From: a bacterium | GTDB lineage: Bacteria; Patescibacteriota; Minisyncoccia; Phycocordibacterales; UBA5272 | Assembly (NCBI GenBank): GCA_027482685.1 | Contig: JAIXVU010000003.1 | Location: 38,065 to 102,064 of the forward strand | Length of the DNA: 64,000 bases | Direction: 5' to 3' | Part shown: positions 3,483-59,931 of the stretch, piece by piece | Layout of the letters: the number at the start of each line of letters is the position of its first letter | Position numbering within the stretch: position 1 is the first letter of the stretch | The notes under the pieces: generated by a model | What the model was told of the DNA's origin: nothing | The model's input: the letters and a program-made list of their open reading frames with translations, nothing else | The model's database searches: none | Position numbers and translations under genes: made by a program

Positions 3483-4499
3483 TTAATCAGGCAAAAGAAT
3501 ACTTTCTTTTGGCGTAGAAGCATTATGAATTATTTTTTGTATGACCATGCCTAGTTTATCAGAATCATGACGGATGAAACTGCGGAGGTGCGCGATACTA
3601 TCTTTTGGATTGTAGGGTGTTATATAGTGTGAGATGAGAGATTCTGTAACCATGCGAGTATCATGTGGCGTAGTGTTTTGGGTCAGCACACCATCACCTT
3701 CTTGTAACTCATACGCTTCTACCTGCTCTTTACTTGGGGCTTCGGTATTAACTAGGATGTAGTCAGCGCTTTTACCAGTATAGTTTTCTATATCTTTAAC
3801 GTAATCTGCAACAGTCCAGTTAAGTGTATGCCCCTTCTTGTTAGTTAAGTTAGGAATATAGATAATCTTTGTACTACTTTTTGCAAAGGCTTCGCGACAT
3901 CCTGTAACAATGAGGTTAGGTAGTATAGAGCAGTAATGGTTACCAGGGCCGATGATTATGTAATCAGCCTCTATGATTGCATAAGATGCATGAGGATTAA
4001 TTGTTACTGTCTCATCAAGATAAAGTTCTTGGATGGTATTTTCCTTGAAGTTCGTCTGATTAAGAGTATCTTCACCAGTTACGTTATCGCCATTACTTAA
4101 GATTGCATGAAGTGTTGCGATACAGTCAGTTATTGGTAAGACGCGACCACGAACTTTCAGAATATCACTAGCTACTTCTACCCCTTGTGTAAATGATCCT
4201 GTTACTTTTTCTAACCCGGCGAGTAGTATATTACCGAAATTATGTCCAGATAAACCTCCATCTTGGAATCTGTATGACATTAGTTTGCGTACTATCTCTT
4301 GTTGTTCTGAAAGGGCTACGAGACATTGTCGTGCATCCCCTGGAGGAAGCACTCCTAGCTCATCTCGTAATACTCCAGTTGATCCACCATCATCTGTCAT
4401 CGCAACAATAGCGGATATCTCTATATCAGGAATATTCTTAATCCCAGTGAGAAGGGTATAACTCCCCGTTCCCCCACCAATTGTCACTACTTTTTTCAT
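3483..4499 (-). CDS. YvcK/CofD-like (UPF0052, gluconeogenesis factor family) protein
   Basis: MKKVVTIGGGTGSYTLLTGIK...DDGGSTGVLRDELGVLPPGDARQC signature; start placed at internal ATG (MKKVV). Confidence 0.75.
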   Translation of the reverse strand: MKKVVTIGGGTGSYTLLTGIKNIPDIEISAIVAMTDDGGSTGVLRDELGVLPPGDARQCLVALSEQQEIVRKLMSYRFQDGGLSGHNFGNILLAGLEKVTGSFTQGVEVASDILKVRGRVLPITDCIATLHAILSNGDNVTGEDTLNQTNFKENTIQELYLDETVTINPHASYAIIEADYIIIGPGNHYCSILPNLIVTGCREAFAKSSTKIIYIPNLTNKKGHTLNWTVADYVKDIENYTGKSADYILVNTEAPSKEQVEAYELQEGDGVLTQNTTPHDTRMVTESLISHYITPYNPKDSIAHLRSFIRHDSDKLGMVIQKIIHNASTPKESILLPD

Positions 4500-10994: not shown

Positions 10995-11660
10995 CTAGGC
11001 TGCTTGTCTTTGTTCCTCCATCGAAGAATCATTTGCTGCGGATGTTATCGACTTAATATGACTTTGGTAGCCATCAATAACCTTTTGGAGGCAGGATATC
11101 TTTTCCTCTTTTATACGAAGATTATTCTGTAATTCCGTATCATTGTTAATATTACGATGCTGTTTCAATGTCTGTATACCAGATAGTAAACTATTTTTAT
11201 GAGTGTATAGCCTTTCCAGACTTTCTTCTGATCCGTTTTCTGCTTCTTTTCCAAGTTTTTCATAAATAGTACGAGCACCATCAATGTCTATACTATCGGA
11301 GATTGTATCTAGATCTTCAAGTTGTTCACTAGCGGTTTCCCATTCACTCGTATCAACTCCCTCTAGCTCCAATCCTTCTTGTATTCTCTTAAAGTGCTCA
11401 GTCTTAACCTTCCCAAGTAAGGTCTTTAGACTATATACGCTGTCAGGTTTAGTAACTTCCAGCTTATCAATAAGCATAGGCAGTGCTTCTTCTAAAAATT
11501 CAAGATAGTCTGTTTCTGTGTTTGCTGTATCTACAGATAGTAAAGCGTTAGCAACTCGTTCTGCTTCCGGGCCGAGCATCCTTTTAACAGTTTCGAGTGT
11601 AAGATTTTTTGGCTCAATACTTGTAGGTTGTGGTGCTGATGATGGATTAAATGGTGGCAT
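10995..11660 (-). CDS. hypothetical acidic protein
   Basis: ORF only; probable start MPPFNPSS; a decayed partial paralog lies immediately downstream (10640-10990, minus strand). Confidence 0.45.
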   Translation of the reverse strand: MPPFNPSSAPQPTSIEPKNLTLETVKRMLGPEAERVANALLSVDTANTETDYLEFLEEALPMLIDKLEVTKPDSVYSLKTLLGKVKTEHFKRIQEGLELEGVDTSEWETASEQLEDLDTISDSIDIDGARTIYEKLGKEAENGSEESLERLYTHKNSLLSGIQTLKQHRNINNDTELQNNLRIKEEKISCLQKVIDGYQSHIKSITSAANDSSMEEQRQAA

Positions 11661-12208
11661 ATGATAAAAGTATATCATGCTCTCGTTTTAATCTTGAAAA
11701 GATAATTAACATTCACCCCTTTCCTTAAAACACTCTAGGAAATCTATCTGTGCGGCGTAAGAGAATCGGTCATTGCTTTGGTATTTTGTTTCATAACTTC
11801 GTTATTCACAAAACCCTCAAAGTTTTGACCTAATGAAAAATTGACAAAAATGAGCGGTAAAAACACTGCACCCAGTTTTTACAGCTCATTTCCGTAGACC
11901 AATTTTTCGTTCGATTCTCACACAATAATACTTGGGCATTATTGTTTTACTTCTTCAAATATAATAAAACCTGGCAAGAAGCCAGCTTTTGTTGTATCTG
12001 TGCGGCGTAAGAGACGCTTCGCTATCTCACTCGTCACTTCGTTCCTCTTTAGAAACTAACGGTTTCTAACATCCGTGCTTACACTCATTGTTTTCCTCCA
12101 CGGGAAGCTACCGTTTCCCAACCACTTTCCTGTTCGATTCTCTTACGCTGCATGAGTCAATCAAATTAAAAAAACTCTGAGAAATTTTCAGAGTTTTTTT
12201 AATTTTAG

Positions 12209-12279
12209 TGCGGCGTAAGAGAATCGAACTCTTGTCTCCTGCTTGGAAGGCAGGCATTCTACCACTAAACCAACACCGC
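12209..12279 (-). tRNA. tRNA-Gly (anticodon TCC)
   Basis: cloverleaf: acceptor GCGGTGT/ACGCCGC, anticodon loop CTTCCAA, T-arm GAGTTCGATTCTC; reverse complement of window. Confidence 0.8.
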
Positions 12280-12437
12280 TTGTAAAGACTATACTACTAT
12301 ATTTTGAAAATAATTTCTAGTATAAATGAAGTGATGAGGATTATAACCGACCAAGTTTATAATTTATGGCATGAAACAAATAATTCAAGTATTGGTATTA
12401 GTGCTATTAATAATGATTTTTAAGTAAATACAAAATG

Positions 12438-12627
12438 TGCAGGGAATTTCTCCCACAAATCTTCTTTCGCCGCCGCTCAAAAAGTTCGCGGGCCGCTCCT
12501 CGTCCTCTCGCGTGCTCGCTCGGTAGTACTGCGGACTTTCGAATCCCTACGCACATGAAGCAGTTCATGTGCTGCAGTCCGACAAATACTGAAAAAGGCA
12601 ATCAAGGATTGCCTTTTTCAGTATTTG
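12438..12627. repeat. tRNA-associated ~170-190 bp non-coding element, copy A (adjacent to tRNA-Pro 3' end)
   Basis: shares ~75% identity over ~130 bp with copy B (13975-14161): ...AATTTCTCCYACAAATCTT...AAAAGTTCGCRGGCCGCTCCTC...GGACTTTCGAATCC...CGCACATGAAGCAGYTCATGTGCT; begins with direct copy of tRNA 3' end and ends in hairpin containing inverted copy of acceptor stem. Confidence 0.6.
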
Positions 12628-12700
12628 TCGGAGTGCAGGGATTCGAACCCTGAGTCTTTGGTACCCAAAACCAAAATGTTAGCCGTTACACCACACTCCG
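12628..12700 (-). tRNA. tRNA-Pro (anticodon TGG)
   Basis: acceptor CGGAGTG/CACTCCG, anticodon loop TTTGGGT, T-arm GGGTTCGAATCCC. Confidence 0.8.
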
Positions 12701-12817
12701 TAATTGTTAACACACTTTAAAGCATCGTAGTTCTTACAGCAGTTACTTTGCTTTAAATGTTACCTCATACTATCATGTTTTTAAAAAAATGCATGTATGT
12801 AAAAGCAACAGACTCCC

Positions 12818-13207
12818 CTACTCCATATGAATATTAGGAATTATCTTTACCCTCCCCTCTTCCCTCTCTGTATCTAGGTATACACAAGCTAGATCGATTT
12901 GGAACTTTCCGTTAGCATATTTTTTATGATGATTAAGATATGTTTCAACACTTATTACAATTTTTCTCCATTTATCGCTAGTTAGATTATCCTCTGGTCG
13001 TATCGTAAGACTATCTAAACCATCAAATCCTCTAACTTTTATAGTTTTAACTTCAACAAATCGTATGATTGTGTCTTTTTCGGCAATAATGTCTAGTTCT
13101 CCGTACTTTGTAGCGTAATTTGTATCAATAATGGAAAAACCCTGTTTCATAAGAAACGTTCTAGCTAATTTCTCACCTATTTTACCGATCTCGTTATGTT
13201 CTGCCAT
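12818..13207 (-). CDS. yraN: YraN/UPF0102 family endonuclease (PD-(D/E)xK fold)
   Basis: GEKLARTFLMKQGFSIIDTNYATKYGELDIIAEKDTIIRFVEVKT matches YraN family core. Confidence 0.75.
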   Translation of the reverse strand: MAEHNEIGKIGEKLARTFLMKQGFSIIDTNYATKYGELDIIAEKDTIIRFVEVKTIKVRGFDGLDSLTIRPEDNLTSDKWRKIVISVETYLNHHKKYANGKFQIDLACVYLDTEREEGRVKIIPNIHME

Positions 13208-13627
13208 AATTATACACTATTTTTATAACGTTTCACGTGAAACGAATGTCCTATTGTCTTTTCTGTGTCTATAAGCGAATCCCCATAATAGCCTTATAGA
13301 ATAGCTGTTTTTAGTTAATATAGGAAATAACGGACTAAAATAATTGACTTTTGGAGTGTCTCTTATACCCACTACCCACAGGGTTATCCCCATTTCTGTC
13401 TATTAAGACTTTTACCACAATCTGCATCTGTAATATTGATAAAAGGAACCAAGAGGATCATGTCTATGAACAGTGTAGCCCTATTACTTCTCAATGTAAA
13501 ATCGTTGTGTTAGAATAGGGGACAATGCGGTGTTGGTTTAGTGGCCTTAGCCCGACCAATAGTCGTCAGGCGTACACGTTTGTATATATATTAGGACCAT
13601 ACATATTAACGTTACTCTATAATAATT

Positions 13628-13698
13628 TGCGGTGTTGGTTTAGTGGTAGAACACGTCCTTGCCAAGGATGAGACAGGAGTTCGATTCTCCTACGCCGC
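13628..13698 (+). tRNA. tRNA-Gly (anticodon GCC)
   Basis: GCGGTGTTGGTTTAGTGGTAGAACACGTCCTTGCCAAGGATGAGACAGGAGTTCGATTCTCCTACGCCGCA cloverleaf. Confidence 0.85.
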
Positions 13699-13974
13699 AC
13701 TAAAGTAAACCAAATTGATTGAGATAGCGAAGCGTCTCCCTGGCCTCACTACTCGTTTCTTGTGAAACAGGGGGTTCTGCCAGGATATTTGGTCACCAAA
13801 CATATGTTTTTATTTCATGAATACATTACATAAAAACATTGTTTCGCGACCCCGGGAAAAGCCGACAAGCACTCGCTCTGCTCGTCTTATATACCGGTTT
13901 TTCGTTCGAATCCTGACGAAAGTAGCTTTTGCTACTTTCTGCGGAATCACAAAAACTCCTCATTTTATTCGTCG

Positions 13975-14161
13975 TTTTTGTGCGTCCGCCAGGAATTTCT
14001 CCTACAAATCTTTTCTAGCCGTCGCTCGAAAAGTTCGCAGGCCGCTCCTCATTGTTTTGCTTGCTAGCAAAACATATTCCGGACTTTCGAATCCTGGCCG
14101 CACATGAAGCAGCTCATGTGCTCGGAAGCACAAAAATAAGCTCGTTTCACTTGTTATTTTG
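13975..14161. repeat. tRNA-associated non-coding element, copy B (adjacent to tRNA-Arg 3' end); a more degenerate third copy lies at ~13850-13975
   Basis: see copy A; flanked by 22-bp direct repeat TTTTGTGCKTCCGCCAGGA(A)TT that includes the tRNA-Arg 3' end. Confidence 0.6.
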
Positions 14162-14233
14162 TGCTTCCGCCAGGATTCGAACCTGGAACAACGGTTTCGA
14201 AGACCGGTATGATATCCATTTCACTACGGAAGC
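14162..14233 (-). tRNA. tRNA-Arg (anticodon TCG)
   Basis: acceptor GCTTCCG/CGGAAGC, anticodon loop CTTCGAA, T-arm CCAGGTTCGAATCCTGG. Confidence 0.7.
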
Positions 14234-14283
14234 ATTAGTTAATAGGGGATTCGCCCTACAATAGAGTTATACTATCATAAGAT

Positions 14284-15789
14284 ATGACAGAAATATATAC
14301 ACCAAAAGAAATAACAATACCAAAAGAAGTAATGATGGTCATTGCTGTGCTTCAAAATGCCAAATTCGAGGCGTTTCTTGTTGGTGGTTGTGTGCGTGAT
14401 ATCTTTATGAATGTTAAGCCAAAAGATTATGATATAACGACGAACGCCACCCCAGAAGAAATAATCGCTTTATTTCCAAAGACTTTTTATGAAAATAGCT
14501 ATGGCACTGTTGGCGTGGTGACATGTGGTGAAGATTTGGGAACTGTGTGTAGCGATGAAACAGTCAAAATAGTAGAGGTTACGCCATATCGTCTAGAAAG
14601 TATGTATTCTGATAATCGTCACCCAGATATAGTTTCATGGAGTACAAAGATAGAGGATGACCTTAAACGTCGAGATCTTACAGTAAATGCTATTGCGTAT
14701 AACCCGGTTACAGGCGAGGTGGTAGATCCGTTTCATGGGAAACAAGATATTACTGAAAAGATTATACGTGCAGTTGGGGATCCTAACATCCGTTTTGGTG
14801 AGGATGCGTTACGTCTTATGCGTGCAGTGCGACTTATGTCACAACTTGATTTTGATATTGATCCCGTTACACGTGAAAGTATTCGTAAAAACGCAGATTT
14901 ACTCAATAATGTTTCACGTGAAAGGATTCGGGAAGAGTTTATTAAGATTATAATGACAAAGTATCCAATGCGGGGGCTGGTTGTGATGAAAGAGCTTGGG
15001 TTATTGGACTCAGTTATTCCAGAACTTGAAAGGGGGATAGGGGTTATGCAGAATCAGGCACACAGATATGATGTTTGGGAACATAATTTACGAACATTAC
15101 AACATGCAGCTGATAAGGATTGGCCGTTACACGTTAGACTTTCTGCTATTTTCCATGATATTTCAAAGCCAGAAACAAGACGCTTTTCACGTGAAAAGGG
15201 GGATTATACGTTTTATGGACATGATGTTGTTGGTGGACGTGTTACACGTGAAATCATGACGCGGTTAAAGTTCCCTAAAGAGTTAATAGAAAAAGTCTCA
15301 ATGTTCGTGCGGTGGCATATGTTCTTTTCTGATACTGAACAGATTACATTATCTGCGGTGAGGCGATTAATAACCAACGTCGGTAAAGATAATATATGGG
15401 ATCTTATTGATTTACGTATCTGCGATCGTATAGGCACAGGGCGACCGAAAGAAGAACCTTATAGATTAAGGATGTATCAGTCGATGGTGGAACAGGCACT
15501 TAAAGACCCGATATCACTTAAAATGCTCAAAACTGATGGGAAACGGATCATGGACGTTACACAAGAAACGCCTGGACCAAAGATTGGGTATGTTTTGCAC
15601 GCGTTATTCGATGAAGTGCTTGAAAATCCTGAAAAAAATACTGTGGAATACCTTGATGAGCGTGCGGTGTTTCTCATGAAACTCTCAATTGACGAACTAC
15701 AAGCTCTCGGAGAAGCTGGAAAAGAGGAAATGGAGACAAAAAATGAAGAGCAGGTGAAGGATATCCGTAAACAGTTCAAGGTAAAATAG
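14284..15789 (+). CDS. cca: CCA-adding tRNA nucleotidyltransferase with HD domain
   Basis: AFLVGGCVRDIFMNVKPKDYDITT polymerase-beta head; HD domain (IFHDISKPE...GHDVVGG). Confidence 0.85.
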   Translation: MTEIYTPKEITIPKEVMMVIAVLQNAKFEAFLVGGCVRDIFMNVKPKDYDITTNATPEEIIALFPKTFYENSYGTVGVVTCGEDLGTVCSDETVKIVEVTPYRLESMYSDNRHPDIVSWSTKIEDDLKRRDLTVNAIAYNPVTGEVVDPFHGKQDITEKIIRAVGDPNIRFGEDALRLMRAVRLMSQLDFDIDPVTRESIRKNADLLNNVSRERIREEFIKIIMTKYPMRGLVVMKELGLLDSVIPELERGIGVMQNQAHRYDVWEHNLRTLQHAADKDWPLHVRLSAIFHDISKPETRRFSREKGDYTFYGHDVVGGRVTREIMTRLKFPKELIEKVSMFVRWHMFFSDTEQITLSAVRRLITNVGKDNIWDLIDLRICDRIGTGRPKEEPYRLRMYQSMVEQALKDPISLKMLKTDGKRIMDVTQETPGPKIGYVLHALFDEVLENPEKNTVEYLDERAVFLMKLSIDELQALGEAGKEEMETKNEEQVKDIRKQFKVK

Positions 15790-23016: not shown

Positions 23017-23172
23017 ATGAAGATACATATCTATACAGTTATCGGAGTTCTCGCAACGTTACTTGGTATCACATTCGGGTATACAAGTAGGTATGTAAGC
23101 GAGGGGATTGTGATAGCTCTTCTCATTGCGTGTATACAAGTAGTCTTGATTGGTATCCACTATTTTTTGTAA
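23017..23172 (+). CDS. possible small 2-TM membrane protein (51 aa)
   Basis: unlisted short ORF MKIHIYTVIGVLATLLGITFGY...; hydrophobic; upstream of comEC. Confidence 0.25.
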   Translation: MKIHIYTVIGVLATLLGITFGYTSRYVSEGIVIALLIACIQVVLIGIHYFL

Positions 23173-24602
23173 CAAGAAAAAATCCATCACCTCAACCATC
23201 ATCAGATGTCTCTACAATGCATGATGAAGAAAAGAATTCACAAAGTAGACGTTCGATTCTTCTTGTTCCATTACTTATCTTTTCTCTTGGTATCGCACTC
23301 GGTGCTTTACGTGTACAGATGAGTGCAGAGAAAGTAGCATATCTATGTAAATCAGCGTGTACGTTTACTGCTACGATAGTAAGCTCTCCTGAGAGTAAGG
23401 ATGAGTATCAGACATTTGTCATTCGACCAGAAGATAGAGATGAGAGTACACACGACATACTTGTGCGTGTACCGCTTTATCCACGGTACGATGTTGGTTC
23501 AACGATTAGCATTACCGGTATAGTACGTGAGCCAACAAAGATACTTCCTCATAACGGAGGACAAGCATTTGACTATGCATCATACCTTGCAACGAAGAGT
23601 ATAGGAAGTGTTGTATATTATCCGCGTATAGAGATACTAGACGGTGATGCACATGATGTACCTTCACTCCTAATCAGATGGAAAGACGATCTTGTGTCGC
23701 GTATCAATATGTATGTTGGACAGCCAGCATCATCGCTTGCAAGTGGGATGTTATTCGGAGCATCATCCCTTACCAAAGAACTACAACAAACATTTCGTGT
23801 CGCGGGGCTATCACACATCATCGTACTCTCTGGATTTAATATCGCAATTGTCATCTCGTCTATTTTATTTGTATTCGCATTTTTACCGCTTGTGCTTAGA
23901 GTTATACTTGCGTCATTTTCGGTGATACTTTTTGTCATTATGGTAGGTGCAGAGCCAAGCGTGGTACGAGCGACACTCATGGTATTTGTATCACTTGTTG
24001 CATTACTTCTTGGACGAACGTATGTCTCTCGTCAAGCGCTCATGTTGTCGCTTTTTGCTATTGTCATGTACTCACCTGAGTCGTTACTTCATGATGTATC
24101 GCTTCATCTCTCATTTCTTGCAACTGCCGGTATTGTGTACATGACGGATATATTTGATGAACTATTTACTAAGGTACACAGTCAGTTAATTCGTAGCACA
24201 CTTGCTACAACACTCGCGGCATACATTGCAACCACTCCGTATATCATGCACACGTTTGGAATGTTTTCTCTCTACTCGCTTATAAGCAACGTGCTTGTTG
24301 TGCCGCTTGTTCCACTTGCGATGCTTTTGTCTTTTACAGTTGTTGTTTTGTCTTATATTGGAGAGACTCTTGCATATATAGTTGGGTATCTTAACACACT
24401 ATTAATAGATATCATGATATTTGTCGCAAAGGGTATCGCATGGTTACCATATTCATCACTTACCATATCAATTTCTTATCTCGGAATGATATCTATGTAT
24501 ATTGTAATCATTATTATTGTAGCGTTTCTCACTAGAAAAAAGATTGATGAAACAGTGGTTACAAAAGAAGGAGTAGTAATAAGTGGCATAATGAAGTATT
24601 AG
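23130..24602 (+). CDS. comEC: ComEC/Rec2 competence protein, N-terminal OB + membrane channel part
   Basis: LSHIIVLSGFNIAIV competence-domain motif, many TM helices; true start uncertain (possibly ATG ~23217). Confidence 0.7.
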   Translation: MYTSSLDWYPLFFVTRKNPSPQPSSDVSTMHDEEKNSQSRRSILLVPLLIFSLGIALGALRVQMSAEKVAYLCKSACTFTATIVSSPESKDEYQTFVIRPEDRDESTHDILVRVPLYPRYDVGSTISITGIVREPTKILPHNGGQAFDYASYLATKSIGSVVYYPRIEILDGDAHDVPSLLIRWKDDLVSRINMYVGQPASSLASGMLFGASSLTKELQQTFRVAGLSHIIVLSGFNIAIVISSILFVFAFLPLVLRVILASFSVILFVIMVGAEPSVVRATLMVFVSLVALLLGRTYVSRQALMLSLFAIVMYSPESLLHDVSLHLSFLATAGIVYMTDIFDELFTKVHSQLIRSTLATTLAAYIATTPYIMHTFGMFSLYSLISNVLVVPLVPLAMLLSFTVVVLSYIGETLAYIVGYLNTLLIDIMIFVAKGIAWLPYSSLTISISYLGMISMYIVIIIIVAFLTRKKIDETVVTKEGVVISGIMKY

Positions 24603-25319: not shown

Positions 25320-26270
25320 GTGGGAACAAGATGCAAAGTGACATCAAAAGTGATAGGATTCCAGATTATGAAAGCAAGACGAAACATGGTTCTAGAGTTT
25401 AGAGAAATCATGAAAGAGTATGGACGTGTTATTGCCGTCTCTGTATCACTTTGTCTTCTTATTGCTCTATGTATTTATGTAGCGTTACATACGTCTACAC
25501 GAGAGTTGCGTATTTCATTTCTTGATGTTGGTCAGGGAGACGCGATACTCATACAGACGCCAAGCGGTAAAGACATGCTCATTGATGGTGGAGGAACTGA
25601 TGTAGTGCTCGAGAGGTTATCAGAGCAAGTATCATTTTTTGATCACACTCTTGATGTGATTGTTGCAACACATCCAGATGCTGATCATGTGACAGGGCTG
25701 ATTCCTGTTTTGAAAAAATACGAAGTTAAAAAAGTTATCATGTCTCCTCGAGATGGTGACACGGGAATATTTGCAGACCTCGATAAACATATTGATGGAG
25801 AGAAGACCGAGGTGCATGTGGCACGAACGGGAGACATGATAGATTTTGGTGACGGAGTAACTGCGTGGATTTTATTTCCACCAACTAACTACGATGTGCG
25901 AAGTGAAGATACAAATGATGCATCAGTAAGTATGTTGGTAACATATGGCGAGCATACTTTTTTATTAACTGGTGATCTACCGACAGTATATGAAGGCAAG
26001 CTCATCAGCAGAGAGTTACCGCGTAACATCACTGTCTACAAAGCTGGGCATCATGGGAGCAAGTACAGTAGCGGTGATCAACTGCTCTCGTATACTCGTC
26101 CGGAGTACGCGGTGATAAGCGCAGGCAAAGATAACAAGTACGGACATCCGAACCCTGAAGCGCTCGAGAGATTACAAAAATATGCAAAAGAGATTCTCTC
26201 AACTATTGATAGAGGAACGATTACATTTATAAGTGATGGAAGAGTATTAGAAGTAGAAACAAGTAAGTAG
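25320..26270 (+). CDS. ComEC-type metallo-beta-lactamase domain protein (C-terminal part of ComEC encoded separately)
   Basis: ISFLDVGQGDAILIQTP...IDGG, HPDADH, GHHGS MBL motifs; N-terminal TM. Confidence 0.7.
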   Translation: MGTRCKVTSKVIGFQIMKARRNMVLEFREIMKEYGRVIAVSVSLCLLIALCIYVALHTSTRELRISFLDVGQGDAILIQTPSGKDMLIDGGGTDVVLERLSEQVSFFDHTLDVIVATHPDADHVTGLIPVLKKYEVKKVIMSPRDGDTGIFADLDKHIDGEKTEVHVARTGDMIDFGDGVTAWILFPPTNYDVRSEDTNDASVSMLVTYGEHTFLLTGDLPTVYEGKLISRELPRNITVYKAGHHGSKYSSGDQLLSYTRPEYAVISAGKDNKYGHPNPEALERLQKYAKEILSTIDRGTITFISDGRVLEVETSK

Positions 26271-57204: not shown

Positions 57205-59931
57205 ATGAATTCTACATTTAGTACCCCCGAAGAAGAGATAGCATTTTTACGTAGTCAAATATCTACAAAGATAGAAAAGTCAAAAGGTTTTGAGGGGCGA
57301 TTTAATGAAACTGATCACGCGCGCGAAGTTATTCGTGATTATAAAGAGACGAAGCTTGAACAAGTTATTCCTGTTGCTTCCCAGATCACAGAAGGTGAGA
57401 AGCATCGCTTGCTTGAGTGGCTCGCGCCCAAGGATACTGATCAGCAAGTGAGCATGCTATCACAGATTGCTGCAGAGAAAGGACTCAAAAATGCTTTTTC
57501 TGTTGCGGAGAATTTAAATGATCCACAGGTAGAAGACGATTTTGATAGATTTCTCGTACAGTATCTCATCTCAGGTCATGAGTTTAAGAATGATCTTTCA
57601 AAAGATGAATGGAAAGCGCTACATATGAAGCTCTTTGAAGTGATACTTCCAACCGCTCTTGAGGGTCAGGTCAAACAAGCAAAAGAGATGATGGCTCTTA
57701 TGGAACAGTGGTATGCGTCCATGCAAGCACTCGCTAGTGATGCGTCTAACAAGGAGAAAAATTATTATTCTCTTGAGCTAAGTGTTTCTAACAATACTAC
57801 CGTGACGTCATTTTATTGTGCGGTGCATGTGGACTATGCAGCGTTATTTGAAAAAGTTGTACTTGGAGTATTCCCAACTGCAAAAGTTATAGAGCAAAAA
57901 GAAGATTATAATATATTCCATAATCACGCTATAACAGCAGCATCATATGCTGTACCATCTACCCATCCATCGCTTCCGATTACAACATACAACGAAGTAG
58001 AGGGCGACCCGATGGCGCTCATCATTTCATCATTTATTAAAATAGCAAAGGATAAGGAAGGTCTCGCACTTCAGATACTTATCCGTCCATCAGGTGATGT
58101 GTTTGCCCGTAAATACGGTGAGATGTTAGAAGACCTTCGTAAAGGTGAGACATTTAAGCGTGTTGTTGATAAACAAAGCTTTGTTAAAGAGGCATTCTTT
58201 CAAATAGGGGAAGCGCTCTTTTCTAGTCCAAAAAAAGATGACGATACTGCACATAAAGAGGAAAAGAAAACTACGTTTATGGACGAAAACGCTACAAAGT
58301 TCGTCCAAGAGAAATTATCTAAGACTATCCTTGAGGCCAATATCAGAATAGTGGCATCTGCTGAGTCGTTACCAAGAGTGCAAAAGATACGAGATGACTT
58401 AGAAGCATCGTTTGCACAATTTACTAAAGTCCACGGTAATAGCATCACCTGGAAAGAGGTAGAAGGGAATAAACAAAAGGCACTACTTCACCGTTTCTCA
58501 TATCGTCTCTGGAATGATGATGAGAGTTACCCGCTTAACGTCGCAGAACTTGCTTCTCTCTTCCATTTCCCAATGTTATCTAAGGATGTTGCGAACGTGA
58601 AAGAGCAGACATATACTAAGAGCCCAGCGCCTATCGACCTCTCGCCAAACGGTATTTTACTTGGTGTTAATACTACTCGTGGGGAGGCAACAGAGATACA
58701 CTATGATAGAGAGGATCGTGTGCGTCATATGTATGTTATCGGACAGACAGGAACTGGTAAGACAGTGCTCTTGAAGAATATGATTGTCCAAGATATCAAA
58801 AATGGTGACGGTTGTTGTTTCATCGATCCGCATGGTAGCGATATTGAAGATATTTTGGCAAATATTCCACCAGAACGTGCCGGAGATGTTATCTATTTTG
58901 ACCCGTCATATATGCCACGACCGATGGGGCTTAATATGCTTGAGTATGATAGAACTAAACCTGAAACAAAAACGTTTGTTGTTAACGAGCTCTTGGGTAT
59001 TTTTGATAAGTTATTTGATATGAAGACCTCCGGCGGTCCAGGGTTTGAGCAATACTTCCGTAACGCAACACTTCTTGTGATGGAGCACCCAGAATCGGGT
59101 AATACACTCCTTGAGATTGCCCGTATTTTTTCTGATAAAGATTTTAGAGACTATAAGTTATCAAAATGTAAGAATCCTCTCATCCTACAATTCTGGCAAA
59201 ATGCTGAGAAGACATCAGGTGATCAAGGTCTACAAAATTGGACACAGTATGTTAACAGTAAGTTCGATGTCTTTCTCTCAAATGATATTATGCGTCCAGT
59301 TATCGCACAGGAGCGTAGTGCGTTTAACTTCCGAGAGATTATGGATACTAAGAAAATACTTTTAGTTAATCTTGCGAAAGGGCGGTTGGGAGATAAGAAC
59401 GCAGAGCTACTCGGCCTCATCATTGTTGGTAAGTTTTCTCAAGCCGCACTTTCTCGTGTTGATCAGCCGGATGTTAGCAAGCGACCAGACTTCTATCTCT
59501 ACATAGATGAGTTCCAGAATGTTACAACACCAGCAATTGCAAGCATTTTATCAGAAGCACGTAAGTACCGACTTTCCCTTAACATTGCGCACCAGTACAT
59601 CTCGCAGTTAACAGAGGATATTAAAGGTGCTGTGTTTGGTAACGTTGGATCTATGGCAGTATTTCGTATATCGCCAGAGGATGCGCAGTACCTTGAGTCT
59701 AAGTTCGCTCCGACATTTACAGCATCAGATATTATGAAAATAGAGAATAGACATGCGTATCTAAGCCTCCTTGCCAATGGTACCCCGAGGAAACCTTTTG
59801 ATATTGACGTGCTCCCACCACCAAAAGGAGAGATTGCGCGTATCAGTCAGCTTAAGGAGTTAAGTTATCTTACTTATGGTCGCCCAGCAGATGAGGTGAA
59901 CGAAGAAATCATGAGAAAGTATAATATGTAG
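57205..59931 (+). CDS. large soluble protein: ~480-aa unknown N-terminal region + HerA/TraD/VirD4-like (DUF87-type) P-loop ATPase domain
   Basis: Walker A YVIGQTGTGKTVLLKNMI, Walker B FYLYIDEFQNV, CFIDPHGSD; no N-terminal TM helices. Confidence 0.6.
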   Translation: MNSTFSTPEEEIAFLRSQISTKIEKSKGFEGRFNETDHAREVIRDYKETKLEQVIPVASQITEGEKHRLLEWLAPKDTDQQVSMLSQIAAEKGLKNAFSVAENLNDPQVEDDFDRFLVQYLISGHEFKNDLSKDEWKALHMKLFEVILPTALEGQVKQAKEMMALMEQWYASMQALASDASNKEKNYYSLELSVSNNTTVTSFYCAVHVDYAALFEKVVLGVFPTAKVIEQKEDYNIFHNHAITAASYAVPSTHPSLPITTYNEVEGDPMALIISSFIKIAKDKEGLALQILIRPSGDVFARKYGEMLEDLRKGETFKRVVDKQSFVKEAFFQIGEALFSSPKKDDDTAHKEEKKTTFMDENATKFVQEKLSKTILEANIRIVASAESLPRVQKIRDDLEASFAQFTKVHGNSITWKEVEGNKQKALLHRFSYRLWNDDESYPLNVAELASLFHFPMLSKDVANVKEQTYTKSPAPIDLSPNGILLGVNTTRGEATEIHYDREDRVRHMYVIGQTGTGKTVLLKNMIVQDIKNGDGCCFIDPHGSDIEDILANIPPERAGDVIYFDPSYMPRPMGLNMLEYDRTKPETKTFVVNELLGIFDKLFDMKTSGGPGFEQYFRNATLLVMEHPESGNTLLEIARIFSDKDFRDYKLSKCKNPLILQFWQNAEKTSGDQGLQNWTQYVNSKFDVFLSNDIMRPVIAQERSAFNFREIMDTKKILLVNLAKGRLGDKNAELLGLIIVGKFSQAALSRVDQPDVSKRPDFYLYIDEFQNVTTPAIASILSEARKYRLSLNIAHQYISQLTEDIKGAVFGNVGSMAVFRISPEDAQYLESKFAPTFTASDIMKIENRHAYLSLLANGTPRKPFDIDVLPPPKGEIARISQLKELSYLTYGRPADEVNEEIMRKYNM

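Follow-up and report, generated by a model that had tools for sequence, protein, structure and literature searches.

Structured noncoding RNAs (ncRNAs) located directly 3′ of a tRNA are known from the plant dicistronic tRNA-small nucleolar RNA (snoRNA) genes and from the tRNA-microRNA-encoded RNAs (TMERs) of murine gammaherpesvirus 68, where the ncRNA uses the tRNA promoter and is freed by tRNA-processing nucleases. In Escherichia coli, the 3′ external spacer of a tRNA transcript yields a functional RNA, 3′ETS-leuZ, which is short, weakly structured, and limited to one operon. Acceptor- and T-arm-related sequence also serves as the structural base of larger RNAs such as transfer-messenger RNA (tmRNA), YrlA, viral tRNA-like structures, and mascRNA. 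We analyzed a 64,000-nucleotide (nt) stretch (the window) of contig JAIXVU010000003.1, from a bacterium of the phylum Patescibacteriota, and found two homologous elements of ~150 nt, one immediately 3′ of tRNA-Pro and the other immediately 3′ of tRNA-Arg, both on the minus strand, which is the sense strand of these tRNAs. Since the minus strand is the meaningful one, the elements lie 3′ of their tRNAs in the tRNA orientation, and we propose to call them tRNA-trailer elements. They have a conserved, strand-specific fold, stand just 3′ of tRNAs, carry arms templated by the host tRNA, and use several cores on one scaffold. We give roughly even odds (a probability of about 0.5) to the reading that they are a co-transcribed structured RNA family attached to the tRNA genes of Paceibacteria-like bacteria of the candidate phyla radiation (CPR).

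Read along the tRNA strand, a unit consists of a linker hairpin, an arm termed X, a hairpin termed P1 (types 1 and 2), an arm termed antiT, the core, and a final arm termed Y′. X is the reverse complement of the tRNA acceptor 3′ strand plus the first genomic trailer bases, P1 is a 9-bp hairpin with a CUGC loop, and antiT is the reverse complement of the T-loop and the 3′ strand of the T-stem. The type-1 core is built of hairpins P2b and P3 and contains two invariant or nearly invariant G·U pairs. Y′ is a direct copy of the host tRNA from the T-loop onward (GAAT...), and its pairing with antiT closes the core. Each copy carries the reverse complement of the host T-loop-to-trailer segment at its 5′ end and a direct copy of that segment at its 3′ end. 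The T-loop of tRNA-Gly is not palindromic, and there antiT (GGAGAATCGAA) can be read only as complementary to the T-arm, not as copied from it.

The type-1 element behind tRNA-Arg occupies positions 13976 to 14130 on the minus strand and scored 154.8 bits with our covariance model. Its parts are X (the anti-acceptor arm, 14123 to 14130), P1 (14100 to 14121), antiT (14086 to 14097), P2b (14054 to 14073), P3 (14001 to 14043), and Y′ (a copy of the tRNA 3′ end and trailer, 13976 to 13999). Linker a (14131 to 14160, minus strand) forms a hairpin of 16 to 17 bp with the tRNA 3′ end and arm X and has no G+C-rich terminator stem. The type-1 element behind tRNA-Pro (12436 to 12582, minus strand; 151.6 bits) comprises X (12572 to 12582), P1 (12552 to 12571), antiT (12538 to 12549), a Pro-type P2b (12504 to 12523), P3 (12452 to 12494), and a Y′ (12436 to 12450) that holds only the T-stem copy plus CAC. 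Its linker (12583 to 12626, minus strand) is a perfect bidirectional terminator-like hairpin, and the linker, the tRNA acceptor 3′ strand, and X together make a palindrome with 32-nt arms.

The original prediction, made from the letters of this DNA, had described these two elements as homologous copies A and B. When aligned, they had a mean column identity of 79%, and their longest ungapped block ran for 77 nt at 82% identity (12443 to 12519 versus 13992 to 14068). The shared core motifs and hairpin that it listed were also borne out: three core motifs occur exactly twice each in 64 kb, where chance would give 0.00 to 0.03 occurrences for two motifs and 0.23 for the third, GGACTTTCGAATCC, which matched at least twice in 3 of 100 shuffles, and the hairpin CACATGAAGCAGYTCATGTG is common to both copies. 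The 22-bp direct repeat proposed at tRNA-Arg proved to be 19 to 22 nt long (13976 to 13994 versus 14157 to 14175, 95% identical), and the tRNA-Pro repeat is short, TGCAGGGA(A)TT. Long hairpins with an inverted acceptor-stem sequence were present as described, with 32-nt arms at tRNA-Pro (12572 to 12603 and 12607 to 12638, 97% complementary) and 13-nt arms at tRNA-Arg (14123 to 14135 and 14157 to 14169, 100% complementary). What had been taken for a third, decayed copy at 13850 to 13975 belongs instead to a different core family (type 2, ~13775 to 13949) on the same scaffold. We rejected protein coding as an explanation for the shared core, since the open reading frames (ORFs) over A and B (12435 to 12653 and 13817 to 14107 and 14052 to 14264 on the plus strand, 12407 to 12601 on the minus strand) read it in different frames.

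We built a structural alignment of 14 type-1 copies from ten loci, for which RNAalifold predicted 43 base pairs. Over these pairs, 97.0% of the cells were paired, compared to 75.5% in column shuffles and 37 to 48% when the partners were slid by 1 to 3 columns. Thirty pairs had changes on both sides (129 cells), a number that none of 500 shuffles reached. P1 was 100% paired, with eight of its nine pairs compensated, and P3 had 11 of 16 pairs compensated in addition to the two conserved G·U pairs, found at columns 102-136 in 14/14 copies and at columns 104-134 in 13/14. The type-1 alignment contained 48 G·U cells versus 2 A·C cells, and the corresponding numbers were 20 versus 4 for type 2 and 15 versus 2 for type 3. 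This excess of G·U over A·C cells marks the tRNA-sense strand as the folding strand. Together with the pairing, the compensatory changes, and the conserved G·U pairs, it points to a structured RNA encoded in the orientation of the tRNA, in line with the tRNA-linked small RNA gene that had been listed among the candidates for this locus. The cores remain alignable and paired across genomes whose CCA-adding enzymes share only 79 to 86% identity, which argues for purifying selection on the cores. A kissing contact between the P1 loop (CUGC) and the P2b loop (UAGCAA) is conceivable, but they vary too little to speak for or against it.

No described RNA family accounted for the elements. At the gathering thresholds of Rfam 15, only the four tRNAs passed, and at E values up to 10 over positions 11600 to 14300, there were only spurious matches to microRNA-type hairpins, far below threshold. 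Neither ARAGORN nor Rfam placed a tRNA or tmRNA inside the elements, and our literature searches found no description of them. A copy and a mirror copy of a tRNA's own tail around a structured segment did not appear in any RNA database or paper that we searched.

We searched public collections for related loci, which are given L-numbers here. A pattern scan of genome collections with the type-1 core returned one true match (L004) and four matches without tRNAs, about the number estimated by chance, and a metagenome scan returned one match (L006); with so few true matches, exact-pattern scans are evidently too strict for the type-1 family. Synteny searches with the CCA-adding enzyme produced ten further loci with the four-tRNA cluster of the window. 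A profile search followed by the covariance model R1 placed the core behind tRNA-Arg, tRNA-Pro, tRNA-Gly(TCC) (L018), and tRNA-Gly(GCC) (L010). Two loci reached from L006 via its rluA gene, L025 and L023, added tRNA-Leu(TAG), tRNA-Leu(TAA), tRNA-Cys, and tRNA-Lys, for a total of eight host tRNA species. The L006 copies, which flank rluA, had seemed to lie in a non-tRNA context, a candidate exception that we discarded when the longer contig L025 showed tRNA-Leu(TAG) directly upstream and the arms of the second copy matched tRNA-Lys. All 24 evaluable model matches begin 16 to 48 nt after a tRNA on the same strand, and the model made no other matches in the 64-kb window or in ~160 kb of related loci. 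The presence of the same core behind eight tRNA species sets aside a simple local duplication as the source of the similarity between A and B. In the two tRNA clusters examined, most tRNA genes are trailed by 150 to 400 bp of conserved, structured, noncoding sequence.

The ends of the elements match each host. Of 8 positions in X, on average 7.0 (usually all 8) pair with the real tRNA end, but only 5.0 pair with Y′. Y′ retains its T-stem part, which pairs with antiT to close the core. Where the tRNA has changed in a particular lineage, the arms have changed with it, as with CCTGG to CCTAG in L010, CGGAAGC to CGGGAGC in L004, L021, and L022, and TGGAAGC in L012. Most tRNAs of these loci lack an encoded CCA and have trailers beginning CAAA; the CCA is encoded in tRNA-Pro of L012 (2510 to 2585) and in tRNA-Cys of L023 (5750 to 5826). 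The bases before X (TTG, TCA, or CTG) are the complement of the genomic trailer (CAA...); CCA has a counterpart only at tRNA-Pro of L012, where it is encoded and the X arm includes TGG. Because the complementarity runs into the trailer (CAAA...), the partner of X and antiT is the gene or the precursor and not the mature tRNA. For the same reason, we rejected a retroelement primer-binding site, which would be complementary to the mature CCA end, a relation seen only at the L012 tRNA-Pro. The original prediction had proposed an element that targets tRNA 3′ ends and has host-specific ends; the host-specific ends stand, while for active targeting only the evolutionary outcome is visible.

Compared to the tRNA-snoRNA genes and the TMERs, the tRNA-trailer elements have the same placement of a structured segment directly 3′ of a tRNA on the same strand; they have no promoter of their own, and X follows directly after the linker, as expected for a co-transcribed ncRNA. 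They differ in that the RNAs of those systems contain no tRNA-derived sequence, whereas here the closing helix and the 5′ arm copy or complement the host 3′ end and follow its evolution; the host here is also a CPR bacterium, and the processing is predicted. Unlike 3′ETS-leuZ, the elements are ~150 nt long, form four helices, and occur in multiple copies behind at least eight tRNA species. Like tmRNA and the other tRNA-like RNAs, they build on acceptor- and T-arm-related sequence, but they differ in having an antiT complementary to the T-loop, a destroyed T-loop motif, an often decayed pairing of X with Y′, and no matching Rfam family. Within the same phylum, structured introns are unusually common in tRNA genes, and the published account places them in the anticodon loop (the region of positions 34 to 37, at 35/36) and assigns them to the group I model. 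With these introns, the elements share a conserved core, host-specific pairing segments, a noncoding nature, and the association with tRNAs; they differ in lying outside intact tRNAs, in their size of ~150 nt, and in having no match to the group I model (RF00028) at E values up to 10.

The four tRNA genes of the window are packed into 2.1 kb, as determined with ARAGORN and Rfam: tRNA-Gly(TCC) (12208 to 12279, minus strand), the host of array 3; tRNA-Pro(TGG) (12627 to 12700, minus strand), with the type-1 element described above; tRNA-Gly(GCC) (13629 to 13700, plus strand); and tRNA-Arg(TCG) (14161 to 14233, minus strand), the host of array 1, which has no encoded CCA and a trailer that begins CAAAA. 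All four bear an appendage of this kind, because at least two further core families use the scaffold of type 1. Behind tRNA-Arg, the second unit of the array (13775 to 13975, minus strand) is a type-2 element (26.4 bits) with an arm X2 (13942 to 13949), its own P1 (13917 to 13941), antiT (13904 to 13916), and a decayed 3′ copy of the tRNA end (13775 to 13800); its linker b (13950 to 13980) overlaps the Y′ of the first unit. Behind tRNA-Gly(TCC), a linker that resembles a terminator (12153 to 12207, minus strand) is followed by a type-3 element (12001 to 12152), in which X and antiT run on without a break as the reverse complement of 21 nt at the tRNA 3′ end (12132 to 12152) and the 3′ part consists of the motif GTGAGATAGCGAAGCG and a full copy of the tRNA 3′ end (12001 to 12030). 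The second unit of this array (11751 to 11990, minus strand) has a terminator-like hairpin (11963 to 11990) and a type-2 element without X (11751 to 11944), made up of P1 (11923 to 11944), antiT (11909 to 11921), and a 3′ copy of the tRNA-Gly end (11751 to 11774). Behind tRNA-Gly(GCC), only a solo 3′ type-3 remnant is present (13720 to 13739, plus strand; TGAGATAGCGAAGCGTCTCC).

Further core families on the same scaffold stand behind tRNA-Gly(GCC) in L008 (3504 to 3660), L014 (3460 to 3620), L012 (3500 to 3640), and L021 (3471 to 3615), and core diversity thus exceeds the three types that we analyzed. In one of these families, X and antiT span the complement of the whole T-arm (TGTGTGTAGGAGAATCGAACTCC), and the L021 unit is a hybrid that joins a type-1 P1 to a different core.

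If tRNA-trailer elements are co-transcribed RNAs, we infer that a unit would be transcribed from the tRNA promoter as part of the tRNA precursor. Co-transcription is strongly suggested by L023, where tRNA-Cys is followed by a 19-nt hairpin, the element, and then, 3 nt on, tRNA-Leu, so that the element fills the gap between two tRNAs that have no terminator between them. Release would be by the enzymes that cut tRNA precursors, with a double-strand-specific cut in the 16- to 32-bp stem of Y, linker, and X as one candidate and RNase Z at the discriminator, or RNase P where another tRNA follows, as others. The tRNA-derived closing helix would then be a generic platform through which a variety of small structured RNAs are expressed along with a tRNA, much as in the tRNA-snoRNA genes and the TMERs. 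The host 3′ end might be copied into new units by a templated process of the fold-back or recombination type, and arrays could grow, shrink, and exchange modules by recombination between Y and Y′ repeats. We also entertain, tentatively and with less confidence than the RNA-family reading, that the elements represent an unrecognized class of genetic element, consisting of RNAs that colonize the tRNA 3′ flank and copy its last ~20 to 25 bases in both orientations by a new fold-back or template-switch insertion, or, equivalently, a natural tRNA-scaffold platform.

Several points weigh against a co-transcribed RNA family. The transcript and its ends are themselves predicted from the sequence. The linkers behind tRNA-Pro, tRNA-Gly(TCC), tRNA-Lys, and tRNA-Leu(TAA) resemble good bidirectional intrinsic terminators, which would limit read-through into the elements at these sites. 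Minimum-energy folds of tRNA plus element favor pairing of X and antiT with the tRNA, which would unfold it. The acceptor part of Y′ is often decayed (a mean of 4.9/8 positions identical), and a tRNA-like acceptor end is therefore not maintained. The strand asymmetry taken alone leaves a DNA-level structure possible, since folded single-stranded DNA tolerates G·T wobbles. Finally, the turnover, tandem arrays, solo remnants, and module shuffling would be no less expected if the elements were selfish DNA than if they were host RNA genes. The terminator-like linkers and the competition of X and antiT with the tRNA fold are not explained by an RNA family, and they keep alive two models in which the units are copied or moved.

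The evolutionary record of the units bears on both models. Species differ in that tRNA-Pro has an empty site in L010 and L018, as does tRNA-Gly(TCC) in L008 and L014, and in that units can stand in arrays of two or three. At the Pro site of L022, a deletion derivative has the linker followed directly by TTTGTCGGAGAAATTCCCTGCAC. Variants of P1, P2b, and P3 are shuffled among loci, and the Arg element of L008 and L014 (~3760 to 3815) has an extra hairpin of ~50 nt between P2 and P2b with the remaining fold intact (110 to 121 bits). Single tRNA units are inverted with their elements relative to the window, namely, tRNA-Pro in L008 (2376 to 2449) and L014 (2334 to 2407) and tRNA-Gly(TCC) in L021 (1971 to 2042), with the flanking yraN gene unchanged in orientation. 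Recent mobility was rejected for the strains compared, as no unit was gained or lost within the near-identical groups L010/L011, L014/L015/L017, and L018/L019/L020.

The better placed of these models, although we think it unlikely, is a recombination cassette that moves as a folded single strand. In integron attC sites and in the attP site of CTX phage, one strand folds into an imperfect hairpin. By analogy, a small circle of Y, linker, X, and core would fold so that X:Y resembles the double-stranded 3′ end of a tRNA gene, one strand would be swapped in the palindromic T-loop (TTCGAA) by a tyrosine recombinase, and replication would fix the order tRNA, Y, linker, X, core, and old 3′ end. This product order is exactly the one seen, including the tandem arrays with more decayed distal copies, and like attC arrays the elements combine a strand-specific imperfect hairpin with the order direct site, inverted arm, structured spacer, direct site. 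In the Arg array of the window, a new unit was apparently added next to the tRNA, before the linker orthologous to the first linker of L007, and in L022 CGGGA is found in the tRNA and in the proximal copy, with the ancestral CGGAA surviving in the oldest distal copies. The inversion of individual tRNA units between genomes also fits this cassette. On the other hand, the Gly(TCC) linker is orthologous in filled and empty sites and so does not travel with the element there, and the near-identical strains show neither gain nor loss. The junctions are T-loop derived and host specific, with arms of ~20 nt and no conserved recombination core (R box, GTTRRRY, or dif-like), and moves between different tRNAs would require the internal Y and X to be rewritten each time. 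G·U pairs retained by 13 or all 14 copies, together with conserved loops, are what RNA typically shows and att sites do not. No link to IntI or Xer was seen nearby. The window has 65 ORFs of at least 110 amino acids (aa). We compared 29 distinct ORFs with protein families, 20 of them with Pfam and 9 with NCBIfam, a scan that left about 36 outside. None of the 29 encoded an integrase, transposase, or reverse transcriptase; 7 of the 29, including a 227-aa ORF adjoining the elements, matched no family. Nor did the called genes around the clusters of ten related loci include an integrase or other recombinase, and over this set of genes the search for an integrase or transposase suggested by the original prediction came back empty.

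Somewhat less probable still is a selfish element in which the core RNA is copied back into DNA beside tRNA genes. Here, a polymerase or reverse transcriptase would extend a terminated pre-tRNA snapped back on its own 3′ hairpin, so that X and antiT are written as the complement up to the T-loop, followed by a template switch to the core; all of these steps are hypothetical. Such copying would explain the precise reverse complementarity of X and antiT, which includes the genomic trailer and the terminator arm and ends at the T-loop, as well as the RNA fold as the conserved entity and the many unrelated cores on one scaffold. Reverse transcriptases of the diversity-generating type do occur in these genomes, but the elements have no such enzyme linked to them. 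Simple snap-back copying does not account for the insertion of P1 at a fixed point within the arm, and a complementarity that extends to the trailer (CAAA) and not to CCA means that the mature tRNA was not the primer or template.

An explanation without any RNA function, that the units are scars of classical integrative elements (fused attL/attR sites), similar to the cis-mobilizable elements (CIMEs), or a tRNA-targeting miniature inverted-repeat transposable element (MITE), is improbable. In tRNA-targeting integrative elements and CIMEs, a direct repeat from the T-loop to the 3′ end flanks the insert, and tandem arrays form at one tRNA. The Y/Y′ repeats have this classical signature of T-loop-targeting integrases, the arrays and solo remnants resemble island decay, and if the arms were att or terminal repeats with palindromes sharpened only by quasi-palindrome template-switch mutation, X would be expected to track the nearby tRNA end better than the distant Y′, as it does, since such correction favors short spacers. 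However, the fused att sites that the original prediction listed as a candidate explain only the direct repeat, and neither the inverted arm nor the conserved RNA structure. The elements have no cargo, their units are only 150 to 210 bp long with identical boundaries in many genomes, they have an extra, inverted copy of the tRNA end, and their conserved part is an RNA secondary structure; the constraint on the cores, with its 30 compensatory pairs and strand asymmetry, largely refutes mere scars. Pattern scans of viral contigs and blastn against phage records detected no homologue. The MITE candidate fell because the elements lack terminal inverted repeats and target-site duplications of a fixed kind, have no copies dispersed away from tRNAs in the window or the related loci, and have ends that differ by host tRNA, the sole inverted repeat (X versus Y′) being host derived and often decayed. 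Two guide-type analogies were likewise dropped: a TnpB/IscB-type guide RNA would direct its guide (Y′) at the intact tRNA of its own genome, with no such nuclease nearby, and in a bridge RNA (IS110) the two arms would not, like X and Y′, cover the same target segment but adjacent ones.

Patescibacteria have some of the smallest bacterial genomes, yet the tRNA genes described here carry structured appendages. Should these be processed RNAs, they would constitute a well-supported RNA class that is new, and a covariance model, a defined position, and eight host tRNAs would give experiments a clear handle on it; they may also be relevant to how tRNA precursors mature where the RNase complement is reduced. 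Should they be mobile, arms templated by the host would point to an undescribed insertion chemistry. In either case, partial tRNA copies beside tRNA genes in these genomes are not automatically the borders of prophages or islands.

The tRNA cluster and its surroundings showed several other features. tRNA-Gly(GCC) is preceded, at a distance of 84 nt, by a perfect 19-nt copy of the tRNA-Gly 5′ end (TGCGGTGTTGGTTTAGTGG, 13526 to 13544). This copy is exactly complementary to the tRNA-Gly(TCC) 5′ end (12262 to 12279) as well, and it may have been left by recombination of the two Gly genes, which are inverted relative to each other. Within the cluster, a gene of the YraN family (UPF0102, with a predicted endonuclease fold) is located at 12818 to 13207 on the minus strand. 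It is found in every related locus that has this cluster, with two in L016, and it may be linked to the elements. The window has a G+C content of ~40% and carries housekeeping genes that include nusA, the genes for trigger factor, RNase Y, and the CCA-adding enzyme, clpP, recJ, fusA, tuf, ribosomal protein genes, and secY; the closest relatives of the CCA-adding enzyme are labeled Paceibacteria or Parcubacteria. In L014 (7005 to 8371) and also in L015 and L017, a diversity-generating retroelement with a bAvd accessory gene and an RVT_1 reverse transcriptase sits between the genes for the CCA-adding enzyme and recJ; the window has no such retroelement. ComEC is apparently split into separate ORFs for the competence-channel domain (23130 to 24599, plus strand) and the metallo-beta-lactamase domain (25320 to 26267, plus strand), with a 189-aa ORF in the opposite orientation between them. 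Adjoining the ribosomal protein and secY region, a 908-aa ORF (57205 to 59928, plus strand) has weak matches only to type IV coupling-protein domains (TrwB/TraG).

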